A stretch of DNA of 21,883 nucleotides from Vulcanimicrobiota bacterium (GTDB lineage Bacteria; Vulcanimicrobiota; Vulcanimicrobiia; Vulcanimicrobiales; Vulcanimicrobiaceae), in assembly GCA_003133025.1 (NCBI GenBank), contig PKZK01000198.1:1-21883 (forward strand), given 5' to 3'. A program made the translations under genes and the position numbers. Under the pieces are notes generated by a model. It did no database searches and was not told where the DNA came from. It was given only the letters and a program-made list of their open reading frames with translations. This document shows positions 4,229 to 21,028 of this stretch, one piece after another (the stretch's first letter is position 1; every line of letters begins with the position of its first letter).

Positions 4229-4980
4229 GGCTTCTCCCCGAAGAAGACGTCGGTGCGATAGACGATCTCGACGCGCCCGTCGCGTTCGAAGCGTTCGAAG
4301 GCGGCGTCGAGCGCGGCGACCAGCGCCAGGTACGGTGCGCCGTCGCGCGGAGCGTACGACGTGCTGCGCACGCGTCCGAGCAAGCCGTCGTAGTCGAGGC
4401 TCTGGCTATTGTGAAACGACTCGATGCGCACGCCGGCGAACGCCGCTTCGAGCAAGCCGCGGATGACGCTCGAGCCGTTGCGATAGCCCGCCAGCTCCAT
4501 GCGGTCGCTGAAGCCTTCGACGATTTCGCCGTAGGCGCGCGTGAACGGGTCGGCGTCGTCGCGTTCGTTCCAGACCAGCGCGATGCGGCCGCCCGAGCGG
4601 AGCACGCGCGCGAATTCGGCGATCGATTCGGCGTTGGCGAACCAATGGAAGGCTTGGAACGAGGTGACCAGGTCGATGCTGCCCGCCGGTTCGCCGAGCG
4701 CGTCCGCGTGACCGTCGCGCACGGTCAAGCCCGCCGACTCGGCCGACGCGCGCATTTCGGCGTTGGGCTCGATGCCCGTCACGCTTACGCCGCGCGCGGC
4801 GAGCAGACCGGTCGAGATGCCCGTGCCCGCACCGACGTCGAGCGCGCGCAAGCCGTGAGGATCGCCCAGACCGGCCAAGATCGCGTCGATCGCCGCCGCG
4901 GGATACGACGGACGGTAGCGGGCGTAGTCGTCCGAGCGCGCGTTGAAGCGTTGCGGGTTGCCGCGCGGGTCGAAGCTCAT
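4225..4980 (-). CDS. Class I SAM-dependent methyltransferase
   Basis: YARYRPSYP, LDVGAGTG, GIEPN, QAFHWF and LRSGGRIALVWN. The start MSFDP at 4980 overlaps the upstream stop (ATGA). Confidence 0.93.
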   Translation of the reverse strand: MSFDPRGNPQRFNARSDDYARYRPSYPAAAIDAILAGLGDPHGLRALDVGAGTGISTGLLAARGVSVTGIEPNAEMRASAESAGLTVRDGHADALGEPAGSIDLVTSFQAFHWFANAESIAEFARVLRSGGRIALVWNERDDADPFTRAYGEIVEGFSDRMELAGYRNGSSVIRGLLEAAFAGVRIESFHNSQSLDYDGLLGRVRSTSYAPRDGAPYLALVAALDAAFERFERDGRVEIVYRTDVFFGEKP

Positions 4981-6155
4981 CCGGCCACCCCGTCGATGAC
5001 CGCGAAGCACCGCTCGATGTCGTCGATCGTATTGTAGTGCGCCAAGCTGATGCGCAGCGCGCGGCCGTGCCGGTCGGGCGCGAGCTTCTGCATCAAGCGC
5101 GGCGCGTAGTAGTCGCCGTGACGCGCTTCGATGCCGGCGGCTTCGAGCCGTTGCGCGACCTCTTCGCCGTCCACGCCGTCCACGTTGAAGGCGAAGACCG
5201 GCAGTCGTTCTCGATCCGGCGGGCGGCCGTAGAGCGTCACCTTCCCGGCGCGCTCGGCGAAGCCGCGCCGCATGTGCGCCGAAAGCTCGGCTTCGTAGCG
5301 GGCGAAGGCGGCGAGGGCGCGGCGCGGCTCGGGCGCGACGTCGCGCAAGTAGTCCACCGTGCCGAGCCAGCCGGCCAAGGCTTCGTAGGCCTGCGTGCCC
5401 GTCTCCATGGTCCAGTAGCGCGCTTCGCTCGGGATGCGCTCGTCGTCGGCGTGCACGAAGCGCTCGAACGCGCTATCGCTGAGATACCAGAAGGCCAGAT
5501 GCGGCGCGTAACATTTGTAGGCGGAGAAGAAGACGAAGTCGACCGAGCGCGGGATCTCGAGCGGGAAGTGCGGGAACGCCTGCACCCCGTCGACGACGAC
5601 CGTCGCGCCGGCCGTCTTCGCGGCGCGCGACAACGCGCCGACGTCGAAGACGGTGCCGGTGGCATTCGAGGCCCAGGGCAGCGCGACGAGCACCGGTTCG
5701 CTGGCCAGCAGCGTGCGGTACTTCTCTTCGTCGAGGTCGCCGCGCGCGTCGACGGGCACGACGTGCACCTGCGCGCCGAAGCGGCGCAGCCACATCCAGG
5801 GCGCGACGTTGGCTTCGTGATCGGCGGCGGTGACCACGATGCGGTCGCCGCTGCGGATCGAGCCCGCAACCAGGCGCGCGAAGGCGAAGGCCAGCGTCGA
5901 GGAGTTGAGCCCCGTGCCCACGCGTTCGGGCGGAGCGCCGATCAATTCGGCGCACTCGCGCTTGGCCGCGTCGGCGAGTTCGTTCGTGGCCTCGGTGCGC
6001 GCGAAGATGCCGCCGCGTTGCGCGTTGTCGTAGGTGAGATAGCGCTGGATGCGTTCCAGCGCCGAGTCGGGCAATTGCGCGCCCGCGGCATTGTCGACCA
6101 GGATCCGCCCGCGCGCGGCGCACGAGAGCACTGCCGGAAAGCGCTCCTCGTTCAT
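4977..6155 (-). CDS. Class V PLP-dependent enzyme (cysteine desulfurase-like subfamily lacking the catalytic Cys)
   Basis: DNAAGAQLP, DHEANVAPW, ASNATG, VDGVQ, FSAYK (PLP lysine), HGDYYA and LRISLAHYNT. Start MNEERFP at 6155 has an ATGA overlap with the liuE stop. Confidence 0.88.
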   Translation of the reverse strand: MNEERFPAVLSCAARGRILVDNAAGAQLPDSALERIQRYLTYDNAQRGGIFARTEATNELADAAKRECAELIGAPPERVGTGLNSSTLAFAFARLVAGSIRSGDRIVVTAADHEANVAPWMWLRRFGAQVHVVPVDARGDLDEEKYRTLLASEPVLVALPWASNATGTVFDVGALSRAAKTAGATVVVDGVQAFPHFPLEIPRSVDFVFFSAYKCYAPHLAFWYLSDSAFERFVHADDERIPSEARYWTMETGTQAYEALAGWLGTVDYLRDVAPEPRRALAAFARYEAELSAHMRRGFAERAGKVTLYGRPPDRERLPVFAFNVDGVDGEEVAQRLEAAGIEARHGDYYAPRLMQKLAPDRHGRALRISLAHYNTIDDIERCFAVIDGVAG

Positions 6156-7010
6156 GCGGACAACTCGCGCCGCAACACGCCGCCGATGAAGTCCGAAGCG
6201 GCGCGCACCGCTGCGAGGTCGACGCCTGTCTCCAAACCCATGCCGTGCAGCATGTCGAGCAACGCTTCGGTGGCGAGNNTCGAAAGTCATGACCTTCTCG
6301 TGCAGCGCGGCGCGCACGTTGGCCAGCGCCGTGCCGCGCGTATCGTGGAAGTGCATGGCCAGCCGTTCGACGGGCATGACTTGCTGCAACGCTTGCGCGA
6401 CCTCCGATACCTGTTCGGGCACGGCCACGCCGATCGTGTCGCCGATCGAGATCTCGTCGACGCCGAGATCGGCCAGCGCGCTCGCCACGCGCACGACTGC
6501 TTCGAGCGGCACAGCGCCCTCGTAGGGGCAACCGAAGGCCATCGAAAGATAGCCGCGCACCCACACGCCATCCCGTCGCGCCGACTGCACGACGTCGCGA
6601 AACGCGTCGAGCGATTCCTCGATCGACATGTTGATGTTGCGTTTGGCGAAGGTTTCGGTCGCCGAGGTGAAGACCGCGATCGCATCGACGTGGGCCTCGC
6701 GCGCGCGCCGGTAGCCGCGCTCGTTGGGCACCAAGCACAAGTAGGTGACGCCGGGCCGGCGCTCGATGCCGGCCATTACGGCTTCGGCGTCGCTCAACTG
6801 CGGGATAGCGCTCGGGCGAACGAACGAGGTGGTTTCGATCAGCGCGAGTCCGCTGCGACTCAACAGGTCGATGTAGCGGATCTTGTCGGCGGCGGTAACG
6901 ACGCCCGCTTCGTTTTGCAGACCGTCGCGCGGTCCGACTTCGCAGACCTTCACGCGGCGCAGCGTATCGGTCTCCTCGGGCAGCGGCACGGCGTCTTCGA
7001 AATCGTTCAT
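6152..7010 (-). CDS. liuE: Hydroxymethylglutaryl-CoA lyase, interrupted by an assembly gap (NN at 6278-6279)
   Basis: EVGPRDGLQNE, TSFV.P..IPQL.DA, FGCPYEG, IGDTIGVA and HFHDTRGTALAN. After the gap the protein resumes in another frame (LATEALLDMLHGMGLETGVDL...ELSA*). The GGCPYA segment would fall in the gap. Confidence 0.93.
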
Positions 7011-7017
7011 CGCCCGA

Positions 7018-8955
7018 TCACTCGATGTCGAGCAACGTTGCGCCGCCCGCCACGAGCGCGCCCGCGGCGACGGCGACGTTCTTGACGGTGCCGCCGCGTG
7101 CGGCTTCGATGCGGTGCTCCATCTTCATCGCCTCCAAAACGATCAGCAGGTCGCGCTCGGCAACGGTGTCGCCGGTCTTGACCGCCACGCTGACGATCTT
7201 GCCCGGCATCGGCGCCGTCACCGTACCGTCGCCCTTGGGACCGCGTTCGACTCCGGCCGTTTCGAGCGAAGGGGGCGGCGCGAAGTCGAAGCGATACGTC
7301 GCGCCGTCGAAGAGTACCTCGACCCCGCCTGCGTCGACCCGGGCCCGGCCGCCGGTGCGTTCGCCGCGTTCGTCGCGCACGGTAACGCGGTCGCCGGCGG
7401 TCTCCACCACGAAGTCGCCCGCAACGTCGCCCTCGAGGTGCCACGCGTTCTCGCCGCTCGTGCGGCTGCCCACGGCGCGCAGCGTGCGCTCCACGCCGTC
7501 GAGCACCACGGGGATGCCGACGCGGCCGATGCGCCAGGCGCGCGGGTCGGCCAGCGCGGCGACGATTGCGAGCAGCGCCGCACCCCCGGGCTCGCCGCCC
7601 GCGGGCGAGGCGAGAAACGCAGCGCGCTCGCCCAGGAATGCCGTCGTCGTATCGCCGCTTCGGAACGCGTCGTCGCGTACGATGCGCCGCAGCAACGGCA
7701 GGTTCGTGCGTACGCCGTCGATGCGGAACGCATCGAGTCCGGCGCGCAGACGTTCGATGGCGGCGGCGCGATCGGGTGCGTACGCGATCAGTTTGGCCAG
7801 CATCGAGTCGTAATAGATCGTCACCTCGCTGCCGGCGCCCACGCCCGCATCCAGCCGCAATCCGGGTTCGCCGGGCGGCTCCCAGCGCGAGATCGTGCCG
7901 ATCGCCGGCAAGAAGTCATTCGCCGGATCTTCGGCGTTGATGCGCGCTTCGAAGGCCCAGCCGCGCGTCGCGACGTCGTCGCCGGAGAAGGGCAGCGGCA
8001 AACCGTTGGCCACGTCGAGTTGCAGTCGCACGAGATCCACGCCGTGCACGAGTTCGGTGACCGGGTGCTCTACCTGCAGCCGCGCGTTCATCTCGAGAAA
8101 ATAGAACGAGCCGTCTTCGGAAAGAAGAAATTCGACGGTGCCCGCGTTGACGTAGCCCACCGACCGCGCGGCGCGCACCGCCGCCTCGCCCATGCGCGCG
8201 CGCAGTTCCGGCGTCAGCGCGCTCGAGGGTGCTTCCTCGATGACTTTCTGGTGGCGGCGCTGGATCGAGCATTCGCGCTCGCCCAGATGCACGGTGTTGC
8301 CCTGCGCGTCGGCGATGATCTGGAATTCGATGTGGCGCGGGCGGGTGAGATATTTTTCGAGCAGCACGCGCTCGTCGCCGAAGGCCGCGAGCGCCTCGCG
8401 CTTCGCCGCCGCCAGTGCTTCCCCGAAATCGGTGTCGCCCGCAACGATGCGCATGCCGCGCCCGCCGCCGCCGGCCGAGGCTTTGATCAAGACGGGTCGG
8501 CCGATCCCGGCGGCCTCGCGCTCCAACCGTTCGGCGGATTGATCGTCGCCATCGTAGCCGGGCACGACCGGCACGCCGTGCTCGCGCGCGCGGCGCTTCG
8601 CTTCGGTCTTGTCGCCCATCGCTTCGATCGCGTCGGCCGTCGGTCCGACGAAGATCAAGCCGGCGCCGGTGACGGCGCGCGCGAAGTGCGCGCGTTCCGA
8701 AAGAAAACCGTAGCCCGGATGCACGGCGTCGGCGCGCAACTCGCGCGCGGCGTGCAACACGCGCTCGACGTCGAGATACGATTCGCGCGCGGGGGCCGGG
8801 CCCAAGCGCGCCGCGTCGTCCATGAAGCCGAGATGGTACGCGTGCGCGTCGGCGTCGGAGTAGACGCCCAGCGGCACGATGCCGGCCTCGCGGGCGGCGC
8901 GCGCGATGCGCACCGCGATCTCGCCGCGATTTGCGATCAGCAGACGGCGGATCAC
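7018..8955 (-). CDS. liuD: 3-methylcrotonyl-CoA carboxylase alpha subunit (biotin carboxylase + BCCP)
   Basis: GTG start at IRRLLIANRGEIAVR, then HPGYGFLSE, KASAGGGGRGMR, ERECSIQRRHQK, EMNARLQVEHPVTE and the biotin site EAMKME. Substrate is inferred from liuC/liuE context. Confidence 0.9.
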   Translation of the reverse strand: MIRRLLIANRGEIAVRIARAAREAGIVPLGVYSDADAHAYHLGFMDDAARLGPAPARESYLDVERVLHAARELRADAVHPGYGFLSERAHFARAVTGAGLIFVGPTADAIEAMGDKTEAKRRAREHGVPVVPGYDGDDQSAERLEREAAGIGRPVLIKASAGGGGRGMRIVAGDTDFGEALAAAKREALAAFGDERVLLEKYLTRPRHIEFQIIADAQGNTVHLGERECSIQRRHQKVIEEAPSSALTPELRARMGEAAVRAARSVGYVNAGTVEFLLSEDGSFYFLEMNARLQVEHPVTELVHGVDLVRLQLDVANGLPLPFSGDDVATRGWAFEARINAEDPANDFLPAIGTISRWEPPGEPGLRLDAGVGAGSEVTIYYDSMLAKLIAYAPDRAAAIERLRAGLDAFRIDGVRTNLPLLRRIVRDDAFRSGDTTTAFLGERAAFLASPAGGEPGGAALLAIVAALADPRAWRIGRVGIPVVLDGVERTLRAVGSRTSGENAWHLEGDVAGDFVVETAGDRVTVRDERGERTGGRARVDAGGVEVLFDGATYRFDFAPPPSLETAGVERGPKGDGTVTAPMPGKIVSVAVKTGDTVAERDLLIVLEAMKMEHRIEAARGGTVKNVAVAAGALVAGGATLLDIE

Positions 8956-8974
8956 CGCGGCGTCCGCGCGCGGC

Positions 8975-9760
8975 TCACCGCAACGACCATTCCGGGCTGC
9001 GTTTTTCGAGAAACGCGTGCAGGCCTTCCTGACCTTCCGCGCTCGTGCGCTGTTCGGCGATTGCGTGCGCGGTGATGTCGAGCGTGTCGTCGTAGTCGCG
9101 TTCGGCCACGTGCGCGAGCAGACGTTTGATGGCCGCGATGCCCGTCGGGCTCGCGCTCGCAATCTCGCGCAAGATGCGCGCCACCGCGGCGTCGAGTTCG
9201 GCGGCGGGCACGACTTCGTGCACGAGTCCGATGGCCTTGGCCCGCGCCGCGCCGAACCGTTCGCCGGTGAGGCAGAGCGCGCGCGCGTGCGACTGGCCGA
9301 TTTTGGCCAGCACGAACGGCGAGATGACCGCGGGCAAAATGCCGAGCTTGGTTTCGGTGAAGCCGAAGAGCGCGTCGTCGGCCGCCACGACCACGTCGCA
9401 GACGGCCGCAAGCCCGGCGCCGCCGCCCAGCGCCGCACCCTGAATGCGCGCGATCACGGGAACCGGCACGCGGTCGATCGTGCGCAACATGCGCGAGAGC
9501 CGTCGCGCGTCCTCGACGTTCTCCTCGCGCGTGAGCAGCAGCGATTCGCGCATCCAATTGACGTCGGCGCCCCCGCAGAAGGTCTTTCCGGCGCCCGAGA
9601 GGACGATGGCGCGCACGCTCGCGTCGGCGCCGAGCGTCTCGAAGGCCGCGCGCAGCGCCTCGATCAGTTCGGCATTGAACGCATTGCGCACGTCGGGCCG
9701 GCCGAGCACGACGTGGACGTTTGCGCCCTCGCGCCGGACCTCGAGTAGGGAAGGCTCCAT
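8975..9760 (-). CDS. liuC: Enoyl-CoA hydratase family protein, probable methylglutaconyl-CoA hydratase
   Basis: RPDVRNAFN, FCGGADVNWM, GAALGGGAGL, FTETKLGILPAVISPFV and EGQEGLHAFLEKR.P.W. Confidence 0.9.
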   Translation of the reverse strand: MEPSLLEVRREGANVHVVLGRPDVRNAFNAELIEALRAAFETLGADASVRAIVLSGAGKTFCGGADVNWMRESLLLTREENVEDARRLSRMLRTIDRVPVPVIARIQGAALGGGAGLAAVCDVVVAADDALFGFTETKLGILPAVISPFVLAKIGQSHARALCLTGERFGAARAKAIGLVHEVVPAAELDAAVARILREIASASPTGIAAIKRLLAHVAERDYDDTLDITAHAIAEQRTSAEGQEGLHAFLEKRSPEWSLR

Positions 9761-9831: not shown

Positions 9832-10692
9832 ATGGATGCCGTCGCAGGCGCCGAACGCATGCCGTCGGCCGTATCGCAGACCCGTGAGCCGCTGGTTTAC
9901 CGGCACTCCCTGACCGTGCGGGTGACCCATTGGGTCTTCGCGCTGGCCTTTTTCGTGCTGGTGATGAGCGGGCTGCAGATCTTCAACGCCTCGCCCAACC
10001 TCGACGCCTCCGACAAGAGCGATCCGGCCCGCCGCGTGCTCTCGATCGGCGCCCAGCAACTTCCCGACGGCAAGACCGCGGGCGTGACCACGATCTTCGG
10101 GCACGCCTTTACCACGACGCACGTGTTGGGCTACACCTCGGACGGCATGTCCGGCGAGGCGGAGCGAGCGTTCCCGGGCTGGATCACCTGGCCCGGCTAC
10201 CAGGACCTCGCCGGCGGCCGCCGCTGGCACCTGTTCTTTGCGTGGATCATGATCCTGTGCGGTACGGCCTACTTCATCGGCGGCATCACGCGCAAAGATG
10301 TAGGACTCATCGTGTTACGGCCGAGCGACGTGCCCAAACTCTTGCCCATGCAACTCTACTACCTGCGGCTGCGTCGCGAGCCGCCGCCGCACGGGAAGTA
10401 CAATCCGTTGCAAAAGGCGGCGTACACCTCGGTGCTCTTCGTCTTCGCCCCGCTGATGGTGATCAGCGGCCTCGCGCTCTCGCCGGGCGTCGACGCGATC
10501 GCGCATCCATTGACCACGCTGCTCGGTGGCCGCCAGTTCGCGCGGCTCTGGCATTTCGTCGCCACGGTGGCGCTGGTCGGGTTCTTCGGCATTCACATCA
10601 CGCTGGTCCTGAGCACCGGCGTGTTCAACAACCTGCGCTCGATGGTCACCGGCGAGTATCGCCTGGGCGCGCACGACGGAAACGGCGTATGA
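9832..10692 (+). CDS. Cytochrome b/b6-domain membrane protein (Ni-hydrogenase/thiosulfate reductase cytochrome b-like)
   Basis: YRHSLTVRVTHW, MSGLQIFNA, GRRWHLFFAW, KYNPLQK.AY and ARLWHF..........HI. Four TM segments with heme His residues. Confidence 0.9.
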   Translation: MDAVAGAERMPSAVSQTREPLVYRHSLTVRVTHWVFALAFFVLVMSGLQIFNASPNLDASDKSDPARRVLSIGAQQLPDGKTAGVTTIFGHAFTTTHVLGYTSDGMSGEAERAFPGWITWPGYQDLAGGRRWHLFFAWIMILCGTAYFIGGITRKDVGLIVLRPSDVPKLLPMQLYYLRLRREPPPHGKYNPLQKAAYTSVLFVFAPLMVISGLALSPGVDAIAHPLTTLLGGRQFARLWHFVATVALVGFFGIHITLVLSTGVFNNLRSMVTGEYRLGAHDGNGV

Positions 10693-11441
10693 AGCGGCGC
10701 GAGATCATCACGGGTGCGGCGATGTTCGCGGCGGCTTCGGCGCTCGCCGGCTGCGCCAAGATCACCAACGCGCTCAACGAGAACGATGCGATCAAGAGCG
10801 TGTTGCACGCCGCCGAGCCGCTCAACCACGCCGTGATCGGCACCCGCGGCGAAGCCAAACTCTATCCGGATTCCGCCATCGATCGCGAGTTTCGCGTGAA
10901 CGGTTTCGACACGCCGAGCGACTCGGCATACGCCGCGCTGCGCCGCGACGGCTTCGCTTCGTACAAGCTCGTGGTCGAGGGTTTGGTCGACCGTCCGCAG
11001 GCGTTCACGCTGGCGCAACTGCGCGCGCTCGGTTCGCTGACGCAGACCACGCGACACGACTGCGTCGAAGGCTGGAGCGCGATCGGCAAGTGGAGCGGCG
11101 TGCGCCTCTCATCGGTGTTGGCGCTCGCCGCGCCGCAGACGCGGGCGCGCTACGTTATCTTTCACTGTCTCGATCGCTCGTCCGACGGCGACCCGTATTA
11201 CGAGAGCCTGGATATGCATCAAGCCGCGCATCCGCAAGCATTGCTCGCGCTCGATCTCAACGAACGCCCGCTCGACGCCGATCACGGCGCCCCGGTGCGC
11301 CTGCGCGTGCCCACCCAACTCGGCTACAAGAGCGCAAAGTGGGTCGGCCGCATCGAGGTAGCCGACAGCTTCAAGAACGTCGGCAGCGGAAAAGGCGGCT
11401 ATTGGGAAGATCAGGGCTACGATTGGTATGCCGGCATTTGA
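10689..11441 (+). CDS. Molybdopterin-dependent oxidoreductase (sulfite oxidase/MsrP-like family) with Tat-lipoprotein signal
   Basis: Start MKRREII...SALAGC overlaps the upstream stop (ATGA). Motifs TRHDCVEGWS, HPQALLA, HGAPVRLRVP..LGYKSAKW and GGYWEDQGYDWYAGI. Confidence 0.92.
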   Translation: MKRREIITGAAMFAAASALAGCAKITNALNENDAIKSVLHAAEPLNHAVIGTRGEAKLYPDSAIDREFRVNGFDTPSDSAYAALRRDGFASYKLVVEGLVDRPQAFTLAQLRALGSLTQTTRHDCVEGWSAIGKWSGVRLSSVLALAAPQTRARYVIFHCLDRSSDGDPYYESLDMHQAAHPQALLALDLNERPLDADHGAPVRLRVPTQLGYKSAKWVGRIEVADSFKNVGSGKGGYWEDQGYDWYAGI

Positions 11442-12567: not shown

Positions 12568-14127
12568 CTAAACGAGGCGGCGTTTCCGCGCTTCGGCGAT
12601 CAATTCAGGTTGAGAGTTGACCCGGAAGGCCTGGTAGACCCAGTGGATGTGGTTGCGCACCGTGTTGGGGCTGCACTCGAGCCGCTCGGCGATCCGGCGG
12701 GCGGTCAGTCCCTCGCAGAGGGCGTGGAAGACCTCGCGCTGGCGCGGCGTCATGCGGTTCCAGGCGTCATCGCCGATGCCGGTCGAGGCGGCGTTGATCT
12801 CCGCGGCGATCCAACTGTCGGGGTAATCCCGGATCTTCACCTTCGCCGTCTCCCACCACGCCTGGTCGCCCGTGACGCGGAAAAGATGCAGTGCGGTTCT
12901 GGCCGCGGGCCAGGCATAGCCGGCCTCGTTCCAAACCGCGTAGACCGACTCGAAGAGGCGCTTCGCCTTGCGTGGCTCGTTTAACGCCTCTTGGATGAGG
13001 GCCGCGGCGTACGAGCGATACGCCTCCGTCCGCGGGTCGTCGCGCATGATCAAGCGCGCGCTGACGCCGTCTTCGACTTCGCTGTACTGCGCGAGCAACG
13101 CGGAGGCTTGGCGCACGTCGATTTCGGCGAAGAGGGCGGCGAGGCCGAGCAGCGCCATACGGCCTTCGTCGGGCGTCGAAGCCCAGTCGATCGTCTGCGC
13201 CAACTCGAGCGCCTCGTAGATGTCGGCATTCGACGATGCGCCTTCACCCGCGCAGCGTTTGAGCGAGGCGCGGTCGGTGAGTGCGAAGACGAGCCACGGC
13301 GCCGAGGGCGCGATCGAACTGGCCTTGTGCAGCAGGCGAAGCGCTTCGAAGTAACGCGACGGGCCCTCCAGGGCCAGCGCCCAGCCCAAGGTCCGCGCGG
13401 ACATGTACTGATCGATCGCGAGATCGGCCGTCCACGGGACGTCGTCGTACAGCTTGCGCGCCGCGGCATGGAGGCCGTGAATTGCAACGTCGCGAGCGAG
13501 CGCGCAGAGCGCGCGACAGGCCGCACCGAGCATGCCGACGTCGACGGGCGCCGCGCTCTGCAACAATTCCACGCCGCGCAGCAGCAGGCGCGCCTGCTCG
13601 TCATAGGAGCCGCGCTTGGCGGCGATCCAGCTCTGGGCGATCGCGTTGCGCCCGACGGCCTTCGGCGAGCGGTCGAAGGCGCTGCGCTCCAAGGCCGTTT
13701 CGGCCTCGACCAGGTCGCCGCGCATCCACGCGATGAGGGCTTCGGCGTGCAGCAGCTCCGAGCGCAGCGAATCGGGGAATGCCTCGACCTCGGGGGCGTG
13801 GAGGCTTTCGACGTACAGGTCGGCGGTGCTGAAGTCGCCGAGCATCGCATGGGCTAAGCCGAGCAACGCTTCGGCCTCGAGTTTGAGCTGGCGCTCCGCG
13901 AAGTCGGGCAACTCGACGGCCAGCAGTTTGACGGCGTCCTTGGGCCGCTGTAAGCGCAAGTAGACCCGCGCGGTGAGCAGCAGGGCTTCGGCGCGCTCCG
14001 GGTGCCCGTCGACCGTCAGCGCCTCGCACGACTCCAGGCACGCCGAATAGCGCCCCGCCAAATAGTCGGAGACAGCCGGTGTCAGCGATTCAGTCGCCGG
14101 GATACGGGCAAGCTGCGCTATATTCAT
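12568..14127 (-). CDS. Transcriptional regulator with long alpha-helical (TPR-like) N-terminal region and C-terminal LuxR/GerE HTH
   Basis: C-terminal MTPRQREVFHALCEGLTARRIAERLECSPNTVRNHIHWVY is a LuxR HTH. The first ~450 aa are Ala/Leu-rich helix pairs (AEALLLTARVYLRLQRPKDAVKLL, EALLGLAHAMLGDFSTA, ALIAWMRGDLVEAETALE). No receiver domain or Walker A seen. Confidence 0.88.
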   Translation of the reverse strand: MNIAQLARIPATESLTPAVSDYLAGRYSACLESCEALTVDGHPERAEALLLTARVYLRLQRPKDAVKLLAVELPDFAERQLKLEAEALLGLAHAMLGDFSTADLYVESLHAPEVEAFPDSLRSELLHAEALIAWMRGDLVEAETALERSAFDRSPKAVGRNAIAQSWIAAKRGSYDEQARLLLRGVELLQSAAPVDVGMLGAACRALCALARDVAIHGLHAAARKLYDDVPWTADLAIDQYMSARTLGWALALEGPSRYFEALRLLHKASSIAPSAPWLVFALTDRASLKRCAGEGASSNADIYEALELAQTIDWASTPDEGRMALLGLAALFAEIDVRQASALLAQYSEVEDGVSARLIMRDDPRTEAYRSYAAALIQEALNEPRKAKRLFESVYAVWNEAGYAWPAARTALHLFRVTGDQAWWETAKVKIRDYPDSWIAAEINAASTGIGDDAWNRMTPRQREVFHALCEGLTARRIAERLECSPNTVRNHIHWVYQAFRVNSQPELIAEARKRRLV

Positions 14128-14186
14128 AACTTGGCGCGGCTTGGCCGGGAAGCGGCGGCGTTCCTACCCGGATTGCCGGAAAACAT

Positions 14187-14208
14187 CCGGACGGCTTGCG
14201 CCGTCCGG
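14187..14208 (-). terminator. Hairpin, probable intrinsic terminator after the repeat-peptide gene
   Basis: Minus strand CCGGACGGC-GCAA-GCCGTCCGG (perfect 9-bp stem, GNRA loop) followed by ATGTTTT. Confidence 0.7.
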
Positions 14209-14230
14209 TCGCTTTCCGACTACGTCGGTC

Positions 14231-14530
14231 TCAGTTGCCCGATCCGACCGCGAGAACGGGCCCGCCGCCGAGCGTGTCGCCCGGCTTGACGCGCTGTTGT
14301 TCCGGGGGCGGAGCCGAGAAGACCGGGCCGCCGCCGAGCGTGTCGCCCGGCTTGACGCGCTGTTGTTCGGGGGGCGGAGCCGAGAAGACGGGGCCGCCGC
14401 CGAGCGTGTCGGCCTGGGCGCGCATGTGGGCCTGCGGCATGAGGCCGGTTCCGGCAGTGCCGCCGCCGGCGCACGCCGCCAGCGACGTCGCCAGAACGGC
14501 GAAGGCAAAAAGTTGGGTAGCGCGTTGCAC
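14231..14530 (-). CDS. 99-aa secreted/lipoprotein precursor with three DTLGGGPV repeats
   Basis: SD GGGAGG precedes a GTG start. Signal peptide ends in lipobox LAAC (Cys20). Repeats have a 22-aa period, and all nucleotide differences within the conserved repeat residues are synonymous in this frame. Confidence 0.85.
   Translation of the reverse strand: MQRATQLFAFAVLATSLAACAGGGTAGTGLMPQAHMRAQADTLGGGPVFSAPPPEQQRVKPGDTLGGGPVFSAPPPEQQRVKPGDTLGGGPVLAVGSGN
14255..14410 (-). repeat. 66-bp tandem repeat, about 2.4 copies, inside the peptide gene
   Basis: Unit gac acg ctc ggc ggc ggc ccS gtc ttc tcg gct ccg ccc ccS gaa caa cag cgc gtc aag ccg ggc. Copies 1 and 2 differ at two Pro third positions. 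Confidence 0.95.
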
Positions 14531-14717
14531 TGGGGTTACGTCCTCCCTGACCGTGCGGTCGGTGCTCGCCCGGACCGTTTCCGGGGCCTACGACCGCGTA
14601 AGTGCCCGCCGGGACACGAAATGTGCCCGTACGTGCGAGGAGCCCACATCCTGAGGCCCCTCGTTTTGCTATCGGTTCCTACCGAGCGCTTTCCTAGCTA
14701 ATTCGATGTGAGACGCG

Positions 14718-16325
14718 TCACATTCTAAAGACGCCGAAATGCGTTTCGCGCGGCGCGGCGTAGGCCGCGCACTCGAGTCCGAGCGCTAGGACCTTACGCG
14801 TGTCGAGCGGATCGATGACGCCGTCGTCCCACAGTCTCGCGCTCGAATAGTACGGATTGCCCTCGCGTTCGTACTTTTCGAGAATAGGCTCTTGGAACAG
14901 CGTCTGCTCTGCGGGCGACATCGTGCGCCCCTTTATCTTTTCGGCATCGAGACGCACGGTCAATAGCGTCGACGCGGCTTGCGCGCCGCCCATCACCGAA
15001 ATGCGCGCGTTGGGCCACATCCAAAGTTGCCTCGGCGAGTAAGCCCGGCCGCACATCCCGTAATTGCCGGCCCCGAAGCTCCCGCCGATCACGACGGTAA
15101 ACTTCGGCACCTCGGCGCACGCGACCGCGGTGACCAGCTTTGCGCCGTCCTTGGCGATGCCTCGATTCTCGTACTCTTTACCGACCATGAACCCGGTAAT
15201 GTTCTGCAGGAAGACGAGCGGCGTGCCGCGCTGCGCGCAGAGCTCGATGAAGTGCGCGCCCTTGAGCGCGCTCTCGGAGAAGAGGATGCCGTTGTTGGCC
15301 ACGATGCCCACGACGTGGCCCTCGATGCGCGCGAACCCGCAGACCAGCGTCGAGCCGTAGCGTGATTTGAATTCGTGGAAGAGCGAACCGTCGACGATGC
15401 GCGCGATCACCTCGCGCACGTCGTAACCGATGCGCGGGTCGCGCGAGACGATGCCGTAGATCTCCGCTGCGGCATAGGCCGGGGGAGCGGGCTCGACGTC
15501 GTCGCGCCGCCGCTCGGGCGGTGCAGCGAGGTTGGCCACGGCGGAGCGCACGATCGCGAGCGCGTGCTCGTCGTCGACCGCGAAGTGATCGGCCACGCCC
15601 GAAATGCGCGTATGCACGTCGGCGCCGCCGAGCGCCTCGGCCGTAACCACTTCGCCGGTCGCTGCCTGCACCAGCGGCGGACCGCCCAGAAAGATCGTGC
15701 CGTACCCGGCCACGATCACCGTTTCGTCCGACATCGCGGGCACGTACGCGCCGCCGGCGGTGCACGAGCCCATCACCGCGGCGATCTGCGGAATGCCCTC
15801 GCCCGACATGCGTGCCTGATTGTAGAAGATGCGGCCGAAATGGTCGCGGTCGGGAAAGACCTCGTCTTGCATCGGCAAGAACGCACCGCCCGAGTCGACC
15901 AGGTAAATGCACGGCAAGTGGTTCTGCTGGGCGATCTCCTGGGCGCGCAGATGCTTCTTAACGGTCAGCGGGAAGTACGTGCCGCCCTTGACCGTTGCGT
16001 CGTTGGCGATCACCACGCAATGCCGGCCTTCGACGGTTACGATGCCGGTCACGATGCCTGCCGCGGGCGCTTCGTCGCCGTAGACGCCGCCCGCCGCGAG
16101 CGCCGAGAACTCCAAGAAGGGCGCGAGCGGGTCGGCCAGCCGGTCGATCCGCTCGCGCGCCGTCAGCTTGCCGCGTTTTCGATGCCGGGCCAGCGCCTCG
16201 GGGCCGCCCCCGCGGCGCACGCGCGCCAAACGATCGCGCAGGTCGGCGACCTGGGCCGAAAGGTGCGCGGCATTGGCGCGGAACTCCGCGCCGTCGCGGT
16301 CCGCCCGCGATTCCAGCAACTTCAT
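14718..16325 (-). CDS. liuB: 3-methylcrotonyl-CoA carboxylase beta (carboxyltransferase) subunit
   Basis: [75 protein letters not shown] and FGVFRM. Start MKLLESR at 16325. Confidence 0.94.
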
Positions 16326-16373
16326 TCCGGCGCCGTTCGAGCAAGTGTGACGACGCTCCGGCCGCCTTGCGGG

Positions 16374-16389
16374 CATCGATTAATCGATG
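16374..16389. promoter_or_regulatory. Perfect 16-bp palindrome CATCGATTAATCGATG in the divergent intergenic region (candidate operator)
   Basis: AT-rich perfect inverted repeat between the divergent liuB and DUF1800 starts. Confidence 0.4.
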
Positions 16390-19226: not shown

Positions 19227-20075
19227 TTGCCTCGTCGCCTCGCTCGTCTCGCCGGATCGGCCGCCGTCCTGGCCACGCTGCTCGTGCATGCGTTGCTGCA
19301 GGCGGTGCCCGCGATTGCGGCCGCGCCGCCGACGCAGACTCCGTGCGCCGGCGCGCCGGCGGTCGACGACCCGGCGCCTTCGTTCGTGGATGCGTTTGCC
19401 CAGCCGCTCGCGGACGGCGCCGTGCTCGCGTTGACCGCCCGGATCGTTCGCGCGCCGCAGGACGCGCGCGCCGCGCTGCTGGAGTCGGTGAAGCATCCGC
19501 CGTCGGCAGCGGTGCGCGCCGCGGTGGATCGCGCCGTTCGTGCGAAGTGTGCCGCGCCGCTCATCTCGCAGGCCGCGGTTCGCGCGGCCAACGAACTCGC
19601 CGTCGTCTGGTCGGATCTGCCCTCCGACCGCGTCGACGCTTACATTGCCCAGCGTCTGATTTTCGCGCTAGCCGCCGAAGCCGTACGCGACGCGTTGCCC
19701 GCGGAGACGCTCGCCGCGGCGCTCGACGGTGCGGTGCCGCCCGCCGAAGGTCCGCCCCTCGCGCCGCCGGCTTCGTGCACGGCCGCCGATTCGATTCCCA
19801 AGGTCGTGCATGCCGTGCAACCGCAGTATCCGGCGAATCCCGCCGCCCTGCGCACGGGCGGCTCCGTGCGAGTCGAGGTGCAACTCGACGCGCAGGGTTT
19901 CGTTCGCTCGACGAAATTCCATGGCGCCACGTTCACGGCCGGCGACGGCGATCACGACGCGCTACGCGAATCGGCCCTCGTGTCGGCAGCATCGTCGACG
20001 TATGGCCCGACGACGGCAGGTTGTCCGATCGCGCCCGGGACCTATCTCTTTCGGGTTGATTTCCAAGTCCGTTGA
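19227..20075 (+). CDS. Exported protein with helical N-domain and C-terminal TonB-C-like domain (paralog 1)
   Basis: SD GGAG plus TTG start, signal peptide ending near AIA-AAP. C-terminal PQYP...GSVRVEVQLDAQGFV...A....TY.P.....Y.FRVDF resembles TonB_C. Confidence 0.75.
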   Translation: MPRRLARLAGSAAVLATLLVHALLQAVPAIAAAPPTQTPCAGAPAVDDPAPSFVDAFAQPLADGAVLALTARIVRAPQDARAALLESVKHPPSAAVRAAVDRAVRAKCAAPLISQAAVRAANELAVVWSDLPSDRVDAYIAQRLIFALAAEAVRDALPAETLAAALDGAVPPAEGPPLAPPASCTAADSIPKVVHAVQPQYPANPAALRTGGSVRVEVQLDAQGFVRSTKFHGATFTAGDGDHDALRESALVSAASSTYGPTTAGCPIAPGTYLFRVDFQVR

Positions 20076-20146
20076 CGGCTACGCCCGGTGACGGAAAGCG
20101 CCGCGCGCGGCGCGAAGCCCGAACCACCAACTTCCGGAGGTCGACC

Positions 20147-21028
20147 GTGCGAAGCTTCTCGTCGCGCCTTTTGCAGCGCTCCTCATGTGCCGTACTCACC
20201 GCCTTATTCGTAGGAGCGGCAGTGCCGGTCGCGGCGCAAACGCCCGCTCCGGCCGGCTCTGCAGCGCGGCAATGCGACGGCTTGCCCAAGGGCAACGCGA
20301 ACATCTCGAGCTTAAAGTTATTCGGTTATCCGATCGACGATGCCAGCTTGCTCTTGCTGATGCAAAACGTCGTGCACGCCGGACCCGCCGATCGGAAGGC
20401 GCTTTTGGATTCGGGCGGATCGCGAGATCCGAAGGTTCGCGAGCAGGTCGATGCGGCGGTGCGCAGCGCGTGCGTCGGCGAACTGGTCCGGTACGCGTCG
20501 TTGCGCGCCGCGGTCGAAACCGGATTTCAGTGGGAAACCGCCGACGATGCGCGTCTCGAAGCGTTCGTCAACGGTCCGCTGCTGGTGGCGATCGGTGCGG
20601 AAGCCGCACGCAATGCATTGCCCGACGACGTGCTCGCGGCCGCGCTGCACGGCATTCCGCTCGACGATCCGGGCCTCAGCGTGAACCCGGGCAATCCGCC
20701 ATGCACCGGGGCCGATAACGCCTGGGCCATTCGCGACGCCAAGGAGCCGCTCTATCCCAAGGCCGCGCTCAAGGCCGGCGAGATCGGCAGCGTCAAGCTC
20801 AACGTCGTCGTCGATTCCTCGGGCTTCGTCCGTTACGTCAAAGTCCGCCAGGTCGACGTCGACCTCGACCCGGCCAAGGGCGGCGGCGAGATGGTGTACG
20901 TCTCGCTGGTCGCCGCGGCCGCCGCGCGCTTCCGCCCCGGGAAGTCGACCTGCACCCCGGCGCCGGGCCTGGCCATCGTCAAGGTCGACTTCTCGTACAA
21001 CGGCGTGGCCATCGGCGAAAGCATCTAA
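20147..21028 (+). CDS. Exported protein with helical N-domain and C-terminal TonB-C-like domain (paralog 2)
   Basis: SD GGAGG before GTG 20147, in frame with the 20072 ORF. Signal peptide ends VAA-QTP. C-terminal PLYPKAA....IGSVKLNVVVDSSGFV...AA...RFRP...VKVDF. Confidence 0.8.
   Translation: MRSFSSRLLQRSSCAVLTALFVGAAVPVAAQTPAPAGSAARQCDGLPKGNANISSLKLFGYPIDDASLLLLMQNVVHAGPADRKALLDSGGSRDPKVREQVDAAVRSACVGELVRYASLRAAVETGFQWETADDARLEAFVNGPLLVAIGAEAARNALPDDVLAAALHGIPLDDPGLSVNPGNPPCTGADNAWAIRDAKEPLYPKAALKAGEIGSVKLNVVVDSSGFVRYVKVRQVDVDLDPAKGGGEMVYVSLVAAAAARFRPGKSTCTPAPGLAIVKVDFSYNGVAIGESI

Follow-up and report, generated by a model that had tools for sequence, protein, structure and literature searches.

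A candidate peptide-sensing gene pair with a TPR-LuxR regulator in the Vulcanimicrobiaceae

Introduction

Do two adjacent genes of a Vulcanimicrobiota bacterium encode a peptide signal and the receptor that reads it? The question arises from the window, i.e. the whole stretch of 21,883 nucleotides (contig PKZK01000198.1, assembly GCA_003133025.1) that was analysed. Its reverse strand, to which all coordinates of the pair refer, carries a gene for a small predicted lipoprotein (the precursor, 14231..14530) and, 103 bp downstream on the same strand, a gene for a 519-amino acid (aa) regulator (12568..14127) in which a TPR superhelix precedes a LuxR/GerE helix-turn-helix (HTH). A preliminary description of this DNA had taken the two for a module analogous to the RRNPP systems with a different architecture, expecting regulator homologues to be paired with similar small genes and the core to vary with the receptor. 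Recurrent pairing, the receptor tree and the regulator fold support this proposal, and we put the probability that the two genes are the signal and the receptor of a peptide-sensing circuit, RRNPP-like in its working and made of different parts, at about 0.65. As far as the literature was searched, the pair is one copy of a large, unnamed and undescribed family in peat and soil bacteria.

The precursor gene and its repeated core

The precursor open reading frame (ORF) starts with GTG, 11 nt downstream of a Shine-Dalgarno-like GGGAGG (14542..14547), and encodes 99 aa. A basic n-region, a hydrophobic core and a lipobox make up a predicted lipoprotein signal peptide (residues 1-19) that is followed by Cys20 (together 14471..14530), and two signal peptidase II genes are present in the genome. 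The 8-residue core DTLGGGPV occurs three times, at residues 41-48 (14387..14410), 63-70 (14321..14344) and 85-92 (14255..14278), the C-terminus lying seven residues beyond the last copy. Tandem Repeats Finder reports a unit of 66 bp in 2.4 copies with 95% matches at 14253-14411. The differences between the copies are all synonymous (two synonymous and no non-synonymous over 22 codons; 2/0 and 3/0 over 8 codons), and the G+C content at third codon positions is 0.83. A chance ORF or an assembly repeat was rejected because the copies differ only synonymously and because syntenic orthologues exist (L167, L168 and L169). The precursor and the regulator are each single-copy in the 80%-complete source genome. 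The preliminary description had listed the Shine-Dalgarno sequence, signal peptide and lipobox, the three copies with their flanks and spacer, a hairpin of the gene's own, a spacing of about 100 bp, and a regulator of helical repeats and a C-terminal LuxR HTH without receiver or ATPase domain; all of these were recovered.

Recurrent pairing with an exported ORF

A partner was counted where an ORF with a ribosome-binding word, a hydrophobic N-terminus and an Asp/Glu/Asn-x-Gly-Gly-type motif lay within 300 bp of a regulator gene. The discovery loci comprised 30 taken automatically and 40 picked by hand among 150 listed of 585 matches, and 41 from another search; 7 partial and 4 duplicate loci and 10 without a profile match were dropped, and 99 full-length loci were kept. 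The rule, which was tuned on these loci, found a partner at 71 of the 99 (69/97 without the window and L008, the latter from the unpublished genome G020), compared with 48 of 746 large genes of the source genome. Among the more distant held-out loci (46 new, 8 partial ones dropped) a partner was found at 15 of 38, or at 13 after removal of the spurious L123 and L154; the partners of L121 and L126 are one common gene. By eye, L128, L155, L156, L158, L160, L162 and L164 have a leader with a related element or a different tandem repeat, and many other rule-negative held-out loci are true orphans.

A stricter form of the motif occurs in 33 of 61 regulator-adjacent lipoproteins and in none of 46 other lipoproteins of the same loci; in the source genome it occurs in 2/126 lipoproteins, one of them the window's precursor. 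Being confined in this way, the motif is not a general tether feature, and a generic lipoprotein-tether motif was rejected on this comparison and on the DUF4382 contexts described below. The three closest named loci (58, 50 and 52% identity), L167, L168 and L169, have the upstream carboxyltransferase gene in common and carry a precursor in the corresponding position; its core is related to that of the window, its spacers are not. Downstream, L168 and L169 carry another precursor; the downstream precursor and the 529-aa regulator frame of L002 (genome G010) are the same as those of L168.

In the 83 pairs analysed from here on (L008, L123 and L154 were left out) the partner lies upstream on the same strand in 72, is divergent in 7, downstream in 2 and convergent in 2. 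This varied orientation implies that its product acts in trans. The partner ORF of L007 has the leader seen in L034 of the same genome and ends early without a core; it was probably cut short by a frameshift.

Carriers and variation of the core

Export signals were judged by a hydrophobicity and lipobox rule of our own. Sorted by script, the carriers are small lipoproteins in 42 cases (46-221 aa), small proteins lacking a lipobox in 33 (40-101 aa) and large proteins in 8; the six large partners scanned all have CarboxypepD_reg, four of them DUF4382 too. Counted by the same script, the core is present in several copies in 27/83 and as a single copy in 56/83 precursors. The lipid-anchored, multi-copy precursor of the preliminary description thus holds for the window, but does not extend to the family as a whole. 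A canonical basic n-region is found in 40 of the 42 small lipoprotein precursors.

The cores centre on Gly-Gly (83 and 76 of the 83, in part an effect of the rule); an Asp commonly stands two or three residues ahead of it, and a Pro follows two to four residues later. Certain residues recur directly before the Asp (Met 31, Leu 22, Ala 20 and Gly 20 times). Of 41 single-copy precursors, 22 have the core close to the C-terminus. The core is conserved across four unrelated carrier types, with spacers that vary freely. Carrier type and core both follow the receptor tree: over five bins of receptor distance the mean BLOSUM score between cores falls from 32.6 to 13.1 (rho = -0.21; reached in 0/999 permutations). 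Since kin share labels, this correlation shows co-inheritance and not co-adaptation; the gene pairs travel and diverge together, which alone is no proof of physical recognition. Between paralogues of one genome the cores differ in 36/39 pairs.

DUF4382 proteins were compared at 25 loci (3 ORFs not found). In the regulator context 8/13 carry the motif, in a lengthened tether; outside it 1/9 does, and that match lies, by eye, inside the folded domain. This contrast is confounded by kinship, as the proteins fall into two subfamilies.

A clade of seven loci (L033, L060, L064, L082, L099, L104 and L105) has a divergent lipoprotein partner in which the motif follows the Cys almost directly. The tails of these partners are mostly Pro/Ser/Thr-rich, and next to the partners there are often Cys-containing lipoproteins of 130-170 aa that belong to none of the families tested.

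A candidate operator upstream of the precursor genes

An unbiased count of inverted words first revealed a 16-bp palindrome, TAG(T/C)-N8-(A/G)CTA, upstream of the precursor genes. Its matrix scores above 7 in 64 of 83 upstream regions, in 43 of them at -85 to -40. With one clade left out at a time the palindrome is still found in 63/83 regions and 26/28 clades, compared with 8/77 downstream regions, 70/830 shuffles and 31/1,984 upstream regions of the source genome. A dyad that keeps a fixed position ahead of the neighbouring gene is the kind of site expected for a dimer of LuxR-type HTHs. We propose the palindrome as a candidate operator to which the HTH dimer of the regulator would bind.

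The window also has a perfect palindrome TGTGA-N6-TCACA, which we take to be the CRP consensus, at 14707-14722, 192 nt upstream of the precursor, and L169 has a partial look-alike. This box was not counted, as it was found in 1/73 upstream regions and half of it consists of the last codons of the carboxyltransferase gene. No sigma-70 promoter match was found.

Domains and fold of the regulator

The sensor domain (residues ~16-431, 12835..14082) is predicted to consist of about 11 helix pairs, and the LuxR/GerE HTH covers residues 459-511 (12595..12753). The GerE match has an E-value of 8e-12, and the modelled domain superimposes on the NarL HTH (1je8; Z 12.3, root-mean-square deviation (rmsd) 1.4 over 66 residues). 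TPR matches are all below their cut-offs, the domain-family scan found no receiver or ATPase family in the regulator, and its AlphaFold2 model is all-helical, without beta-strands (predicted local distance difference test (pLDDT) 94.8).

In a comparison of the model with 48,161 chains RapI reached Z 20.3 (rmsd 5.2, 335 residues aligned), a phage Rap 20.1, MalT domain III 19.5 and AimR 18.4; the fold also resembles NprR. The likeness to RRNPP receptors, for which the preliminary description had suggested a structure comparison, was found, but MalT domain III and generic TPR proteins match about as well: eukaryotic TPR proteins score within 1-2 Z units of Rap, MalT domain III and AimR, and Foldseek alone returns generic TPR proteins. 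MalT domain III binds a sugar. The modelled fold is compatible with a peptide-binding groove and no proof of one. Within the helix pairs, the conserved Arg, Asp and Glu residues of the family mostly belong to the first helix, which in TPR proteins forms the lining of the groove.

RRNPP receptors are absent from the best 60 of 175 PDB matches of the profile of alignment A1, and no RRNPP-type NCBIfam family is among the matches for 10 proteins of the regulator family; a remote kinship may nevertheless exist. Co-folding of the regulator (with A1) and precursor residues 41-70 gave a score of 0.01 and a mark of 0.32; no controls were folded, and the result weighs neither way.

Host and spread of the regulator family

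The host family, Vulcanimicrobiaceae, belongs to the diderm phylum Vulcanimicrobiota/Eremiobacterota. The sequencing runs that cover half or more of the window are metagenomes from peat or permafrost (14 rows, of which 4 may be the source). Regulator homologues form 139 clusters at 50% identity (E up to 1e-30). A profile built on 126 sequences, with three candidates scored per genome, was searched systematically in genomes of the phylum Vulcanimicrobiota, including five unpublished ones (G018, G020, G224, G255 and G360). It matches 249/401 genomes of the phylum: 244/296 in the host family, 3/5 and 1/30 in two neighbouring families, and 0/69 in the other 18 families. The matches number 25 in one genome and 11 in another, some of them being partial. 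A single-protein search with the regulator found 3 genome loci and no viral contig, and the TPR part gave no tblastn match among plasmids and phages. Look-alikes in the ESM Atlas are Actinomycetota TPR and TPR-LuxR clusters (0.91-0.93, fewer than 170 shared features), which we treat as a lead only. A cluster look-up for 10 homologues returned generic CsgD-family or TPR names only.

Eight homologues (L015, L017, L045, L047, L049, L153, L158 and L162) form a clade without HTH, and three of them stand in tandem in G004. Upstream of L158 and L162 lies an ORF in which a hydrophobic leader goes together with a long, perfect tandem repeat whose core is different. The members of this clade are possibly Rap-like and may act by protein contacts. 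Five regulator copies (L124, L129, L133, L141 and L144) stand in tandem on contig C6 of G140, three of them full-length and without partner by the rule, two partial. An 837-aa homologue, P0009, has two matched stretches and one HTH; perhaps its sensor domain is doubled.

Discussion

What can be read from the DNA is a pair of genes, an export signal, a conserved core and a palindrome; cleavage, re-import, binding and signalling itself we infer, as follows. The precursor would be exported and, in the window, lipidated at Cys20; an envelope protease would cut before the Asp, and the C-terminal side would be trimmed near the Pro, so that one precursor could yield up to three copies of a peptide of 7-9 residues. 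An Opp/Dpp-type ATP-binding cassette (ABC) importer could take up the peptide: the source genome has 14 SBP_bac_5 genes over the cut-off and two adjacent oligopeptide ABC ATPase genes, and no SbmA/BacA was found in its 80%-complete sequence. Inside the cell the peptide would bind the groove of the TPR superhelix and switch DNA binding of the HTH dimer, which would control the precursor promoter, as a feedback, and other targets. With a core of its own for each receptor clade, one genome could hold many private channels. The odds seem to us evenly balanced on a wider proposal, that the Vulcanimicrobiaceae have a peptide cell-to-cell language of their own. It would have arisen separately from RRNPP, by the joining of a MalT-like sensor to a LuxR HTH, and a single genome could have as many as about 25 receptor genes. 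The carriers releasing the core would be dedicated lipid-anchored precursors with several copies, peptides with a hydrophobic leader and no anchor, and large folded lipoproteins with the core in their tethers; once released, the core would cross a two-membrane envelope.

The known systems nearest to the pair are those of RRNPP(A) (Rap-Phr, NprR-NprX, PlcR-PapR, AimR-AimP, Rgg-SHP and ComR-ComS), in which, likewise, a cytoplasmic TPR superhelix of similar fold is encoded next to a small propeptide that is exported and has its core at the C-terminus. The parts available of the sources describe propeptide cores near the C-terminus (PMC10075063), orphan receptors (PMC9765709) and multi-copy or duplicated cores in Rap-Phr (PMC11343458). 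RRNPP(A) systems are recognised by a receptor of 250-500 aa with a TPR-like superhelix and by an adjacent propeptide 10-100 aa long at a distance of -60 to 400 bp; here the superhelix is modelled with confidence and the propeptide has 99 aa at 103 bp, but the regulator has 519 aa. Validated receptors have 285-473 aa, according to the accessible text of PMC10075063, and their HTH or three-helix bundle is N-terminal (PMC9765709, in the sections available), whereas the domain order is reversed here, TPR first and HTH last. The carriers here include lipoproteins, the host belongs to a diderm phylum instead of the Bacillota, and identity in the structural alignments is 8-14%. Since domain order, length and host differ, the regulator falls outside RRNPP; it probably works like a member.

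MalT and the other LAL (STAND-LuxR) regulators share the order of a helical-repeat sensor and a C-terminal LuxR HTH, as in the C-terminal half of MalT, which suggests that the regulator descended from a STAND regulator after loss of the ATPase. Unlike them, it has no N-terminal STAND ATPase and stands beside a peptide gene; the NCBIfam MalT match reaches 19.8 bits against a cut-off of 537 and covers the HTH only, and there is no TPR_MalT match. NarL/FixJ response regulators of two-component systems differ by their receiver domain. Enterococcal pheromones are cut from lipoprotein signal peptides, and cCF10, from the lipoprotein CcfA, is imported through Opp and read by PrgX, as far as the available part of PMC7117660 goes. 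In Streptomyces, the TPR regulator AfsR activates the adjacent small repeat protein AfsS and binds it through the AfsS repeats; AfsR is a SARP-ATPase-TPR protein and AfsS an intact co-regulator, the string 'secret-' being absent from the main text of the paper (PMC10832544, as available), whereas the precursor here has an export signal. Two of the features stressed in the preliminary description thus have partial precedent, in duplicated Phr pheromones and in lipoprotein-derived pheromones. No published description of the regulator-precursor family or of its combination of features was found in a search that left most subscription papers and supplements outside.

Other accounts of the same locus have to be weighed. 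The small gene might be a target of the regulator and nothing else: a MalT-like sensor without its ATPase would read another ligand, and the gene would encode a transcribed envelope or secreted effector or the signal of another receptor. The palindrome upstream of the precursors would suit such a sensor, as would the TPR-then-LuxR order shared with MalT, the top rank of MalT domain III in one structure comparison, the many homologues without a partner and the eight large folded partners with DUF4382 and/or CarboxypepD_reg. We nevertheless consider it unlikely, because the same short core persists in four unrelated kinds of carrier, although the spacers are free to change, because DUF4382 tethers carry the core mainly in the regulator context, and because cores differ between paralogues, which is needless for an effector. 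It is distinctly unlikely that the repeats are a ligand without intercellular role, binding the receptor as an intact or cell-retained chain by which a cell would sense its own failures of export, proteolysis in its envelope or damage to its membrane. AfsS offers a precedent (PMC10832544, in the text available), a lipid anchor in a diderm would favour retention, and lipobox-free precursors without N-terminal positive charge could insert with the core towards the cytoplasm. However, the canonical n-regions of the small lipoprotein precursors indicate that these should be exported, the recurrent residues before the Asp resemble a cleavage site, and up to 25 profile matches per genome, with differing cores where examined, suit private channels better than one stress sensor.

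A leader followed by repeated cores also resembles the layout of ribosomally synthesised and post-translationally modified peptides (RiPPs), and the precursor could be the substrate of such a pathway. This is very improbable: beyond regulators and antisense frames the largest neighbour clusters cover at most 12/136 loci (flanks of 1.5-4 kb), and no modifying enzyme was found among the 17 window ORFs scanned or as a recurrent gene within those flanks. It is hardly credible, too, that the small ORF acts in cis, as a leader or ribosome-arrest peptide, and governs expression of the downstream regulator by way of the hairpin. The 72 upstream partners and the strong hairpin between the two genes of the window would agree with it, but 11/83 partners are divergent, downstream or convergent, L168 and L169 have their second precursor downstream, and the cores are often internal and repeated. 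The hairpin (14187..14208) is terminator-like, lies within a longer stem and has a short U-tract. By pattern scan alone it does not exceed chance (1 hit, with a shuffle mean of 2.1), but the gap region of 116 nt folds with z = -3.41, and none of 200 shuffles folded equally well.

Several observations weigh against a signal-receptor circuit as proposed here. No partner was found by the rule at 28/99 discovery and 23/38 held-out loci, which include all 10 HTH-less homologues except L043, and no protease or transporter recurs beside the pair in flanks of 1.5-4 kb at 136 loci. Lys or Arg is missing from residues 2-6 of 32/33 lipobox-free precursors, which makes their export route uncertain. The outer membrane, present with lipopolysaccharide in the cultured relative Vulcanimicrobium (PMC9758169, in the part available), is an obstacle with which Gram-positive systems do not have to cope. 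The match in fold lacks specificity, since APC6 (Z 19.1) and Pins (18.9) score closely in the 48,161-chain comparison and MalT domain III is top in the other one (Z 23.1, rmsd 5.1, 330 aligned). The palindrome would equally fit a regulator that merely transcribes the small gene. The window itself has no scoring site: its best score is -2.2, compared with 12.6 in L169 and 8.2 in L167, and alignment by eye with their sites (at -45 and -47, respectively) leaves a degenerate remnant at 14561..14579 as candidate operator. Strong sites in the source genome number 16 versus 31-40 in shuffles, hence no genome-wide regulon is visible from the matrix. Finally, the window's receptor differs from its nearest relatives by Glu322Gly, Glu331Ala and Arg407Pro; Glu322 and Arg407 are present in all eight relatives compared, Glu331 in six. 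The three codons read as in the window in contigs of runs X17/X18 (identical rows, counted once). Given the eroded palindrome and the three changed acidic or basic residues, the feedback loop of the window's copy may be altered or gone. A decayed receptor is unsupported overall, as 10 deviations over 56 conserved columns (median 7, rank 29/83) are no outlier.

Signalling by re-imported peptides through cytoplasmic TPR receptors has so far been described for Bacillota. If our proposal is true, the same logic was built twice, the second time with reversed domain order in a diderm peat and soil phylum, and this would offer a first way into the study of social behaviour in a phylum of which hardly anything has been cultivated. 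A standard detector would discard a family of this order by design; RRNPP_detector, from a study on Firmicutes, discards N-terminal TPR architectures, according to the available text of PMC10075063. The data already supply candidates for the ligands and the operator, as well as many natural pairs of receptor and peptide, so binding, specificity and feedback are testable without culturing the host.

Other observations in the window

Contigs of four out of six RNA runs span parts of both genes at low depth, which cannot show transcription. The pair stands within a set of HMGL-like, biotin carboxylase, enoyl-CoA hydratase and carboxyltransferase genes (6284-9760 and 14718-16376), presumably of the leucine-catabolism type. 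The set is interrupted by the peptide-regulator pair and an EamA gene, and also by a cytochrome b561/molybdopterin oxidoreductase pair (9832-11441). A 677-aa ORF at 4977-7010 combines an HMGL-like gene with a class V aminotransferase, with ambiguous bases (XX) between the two, and probably represents two genes fused by an assembly gap. At 19227-21028 two tandem proteins have a hydrophobic N-terminus and a C-terminal TonB_C domain.

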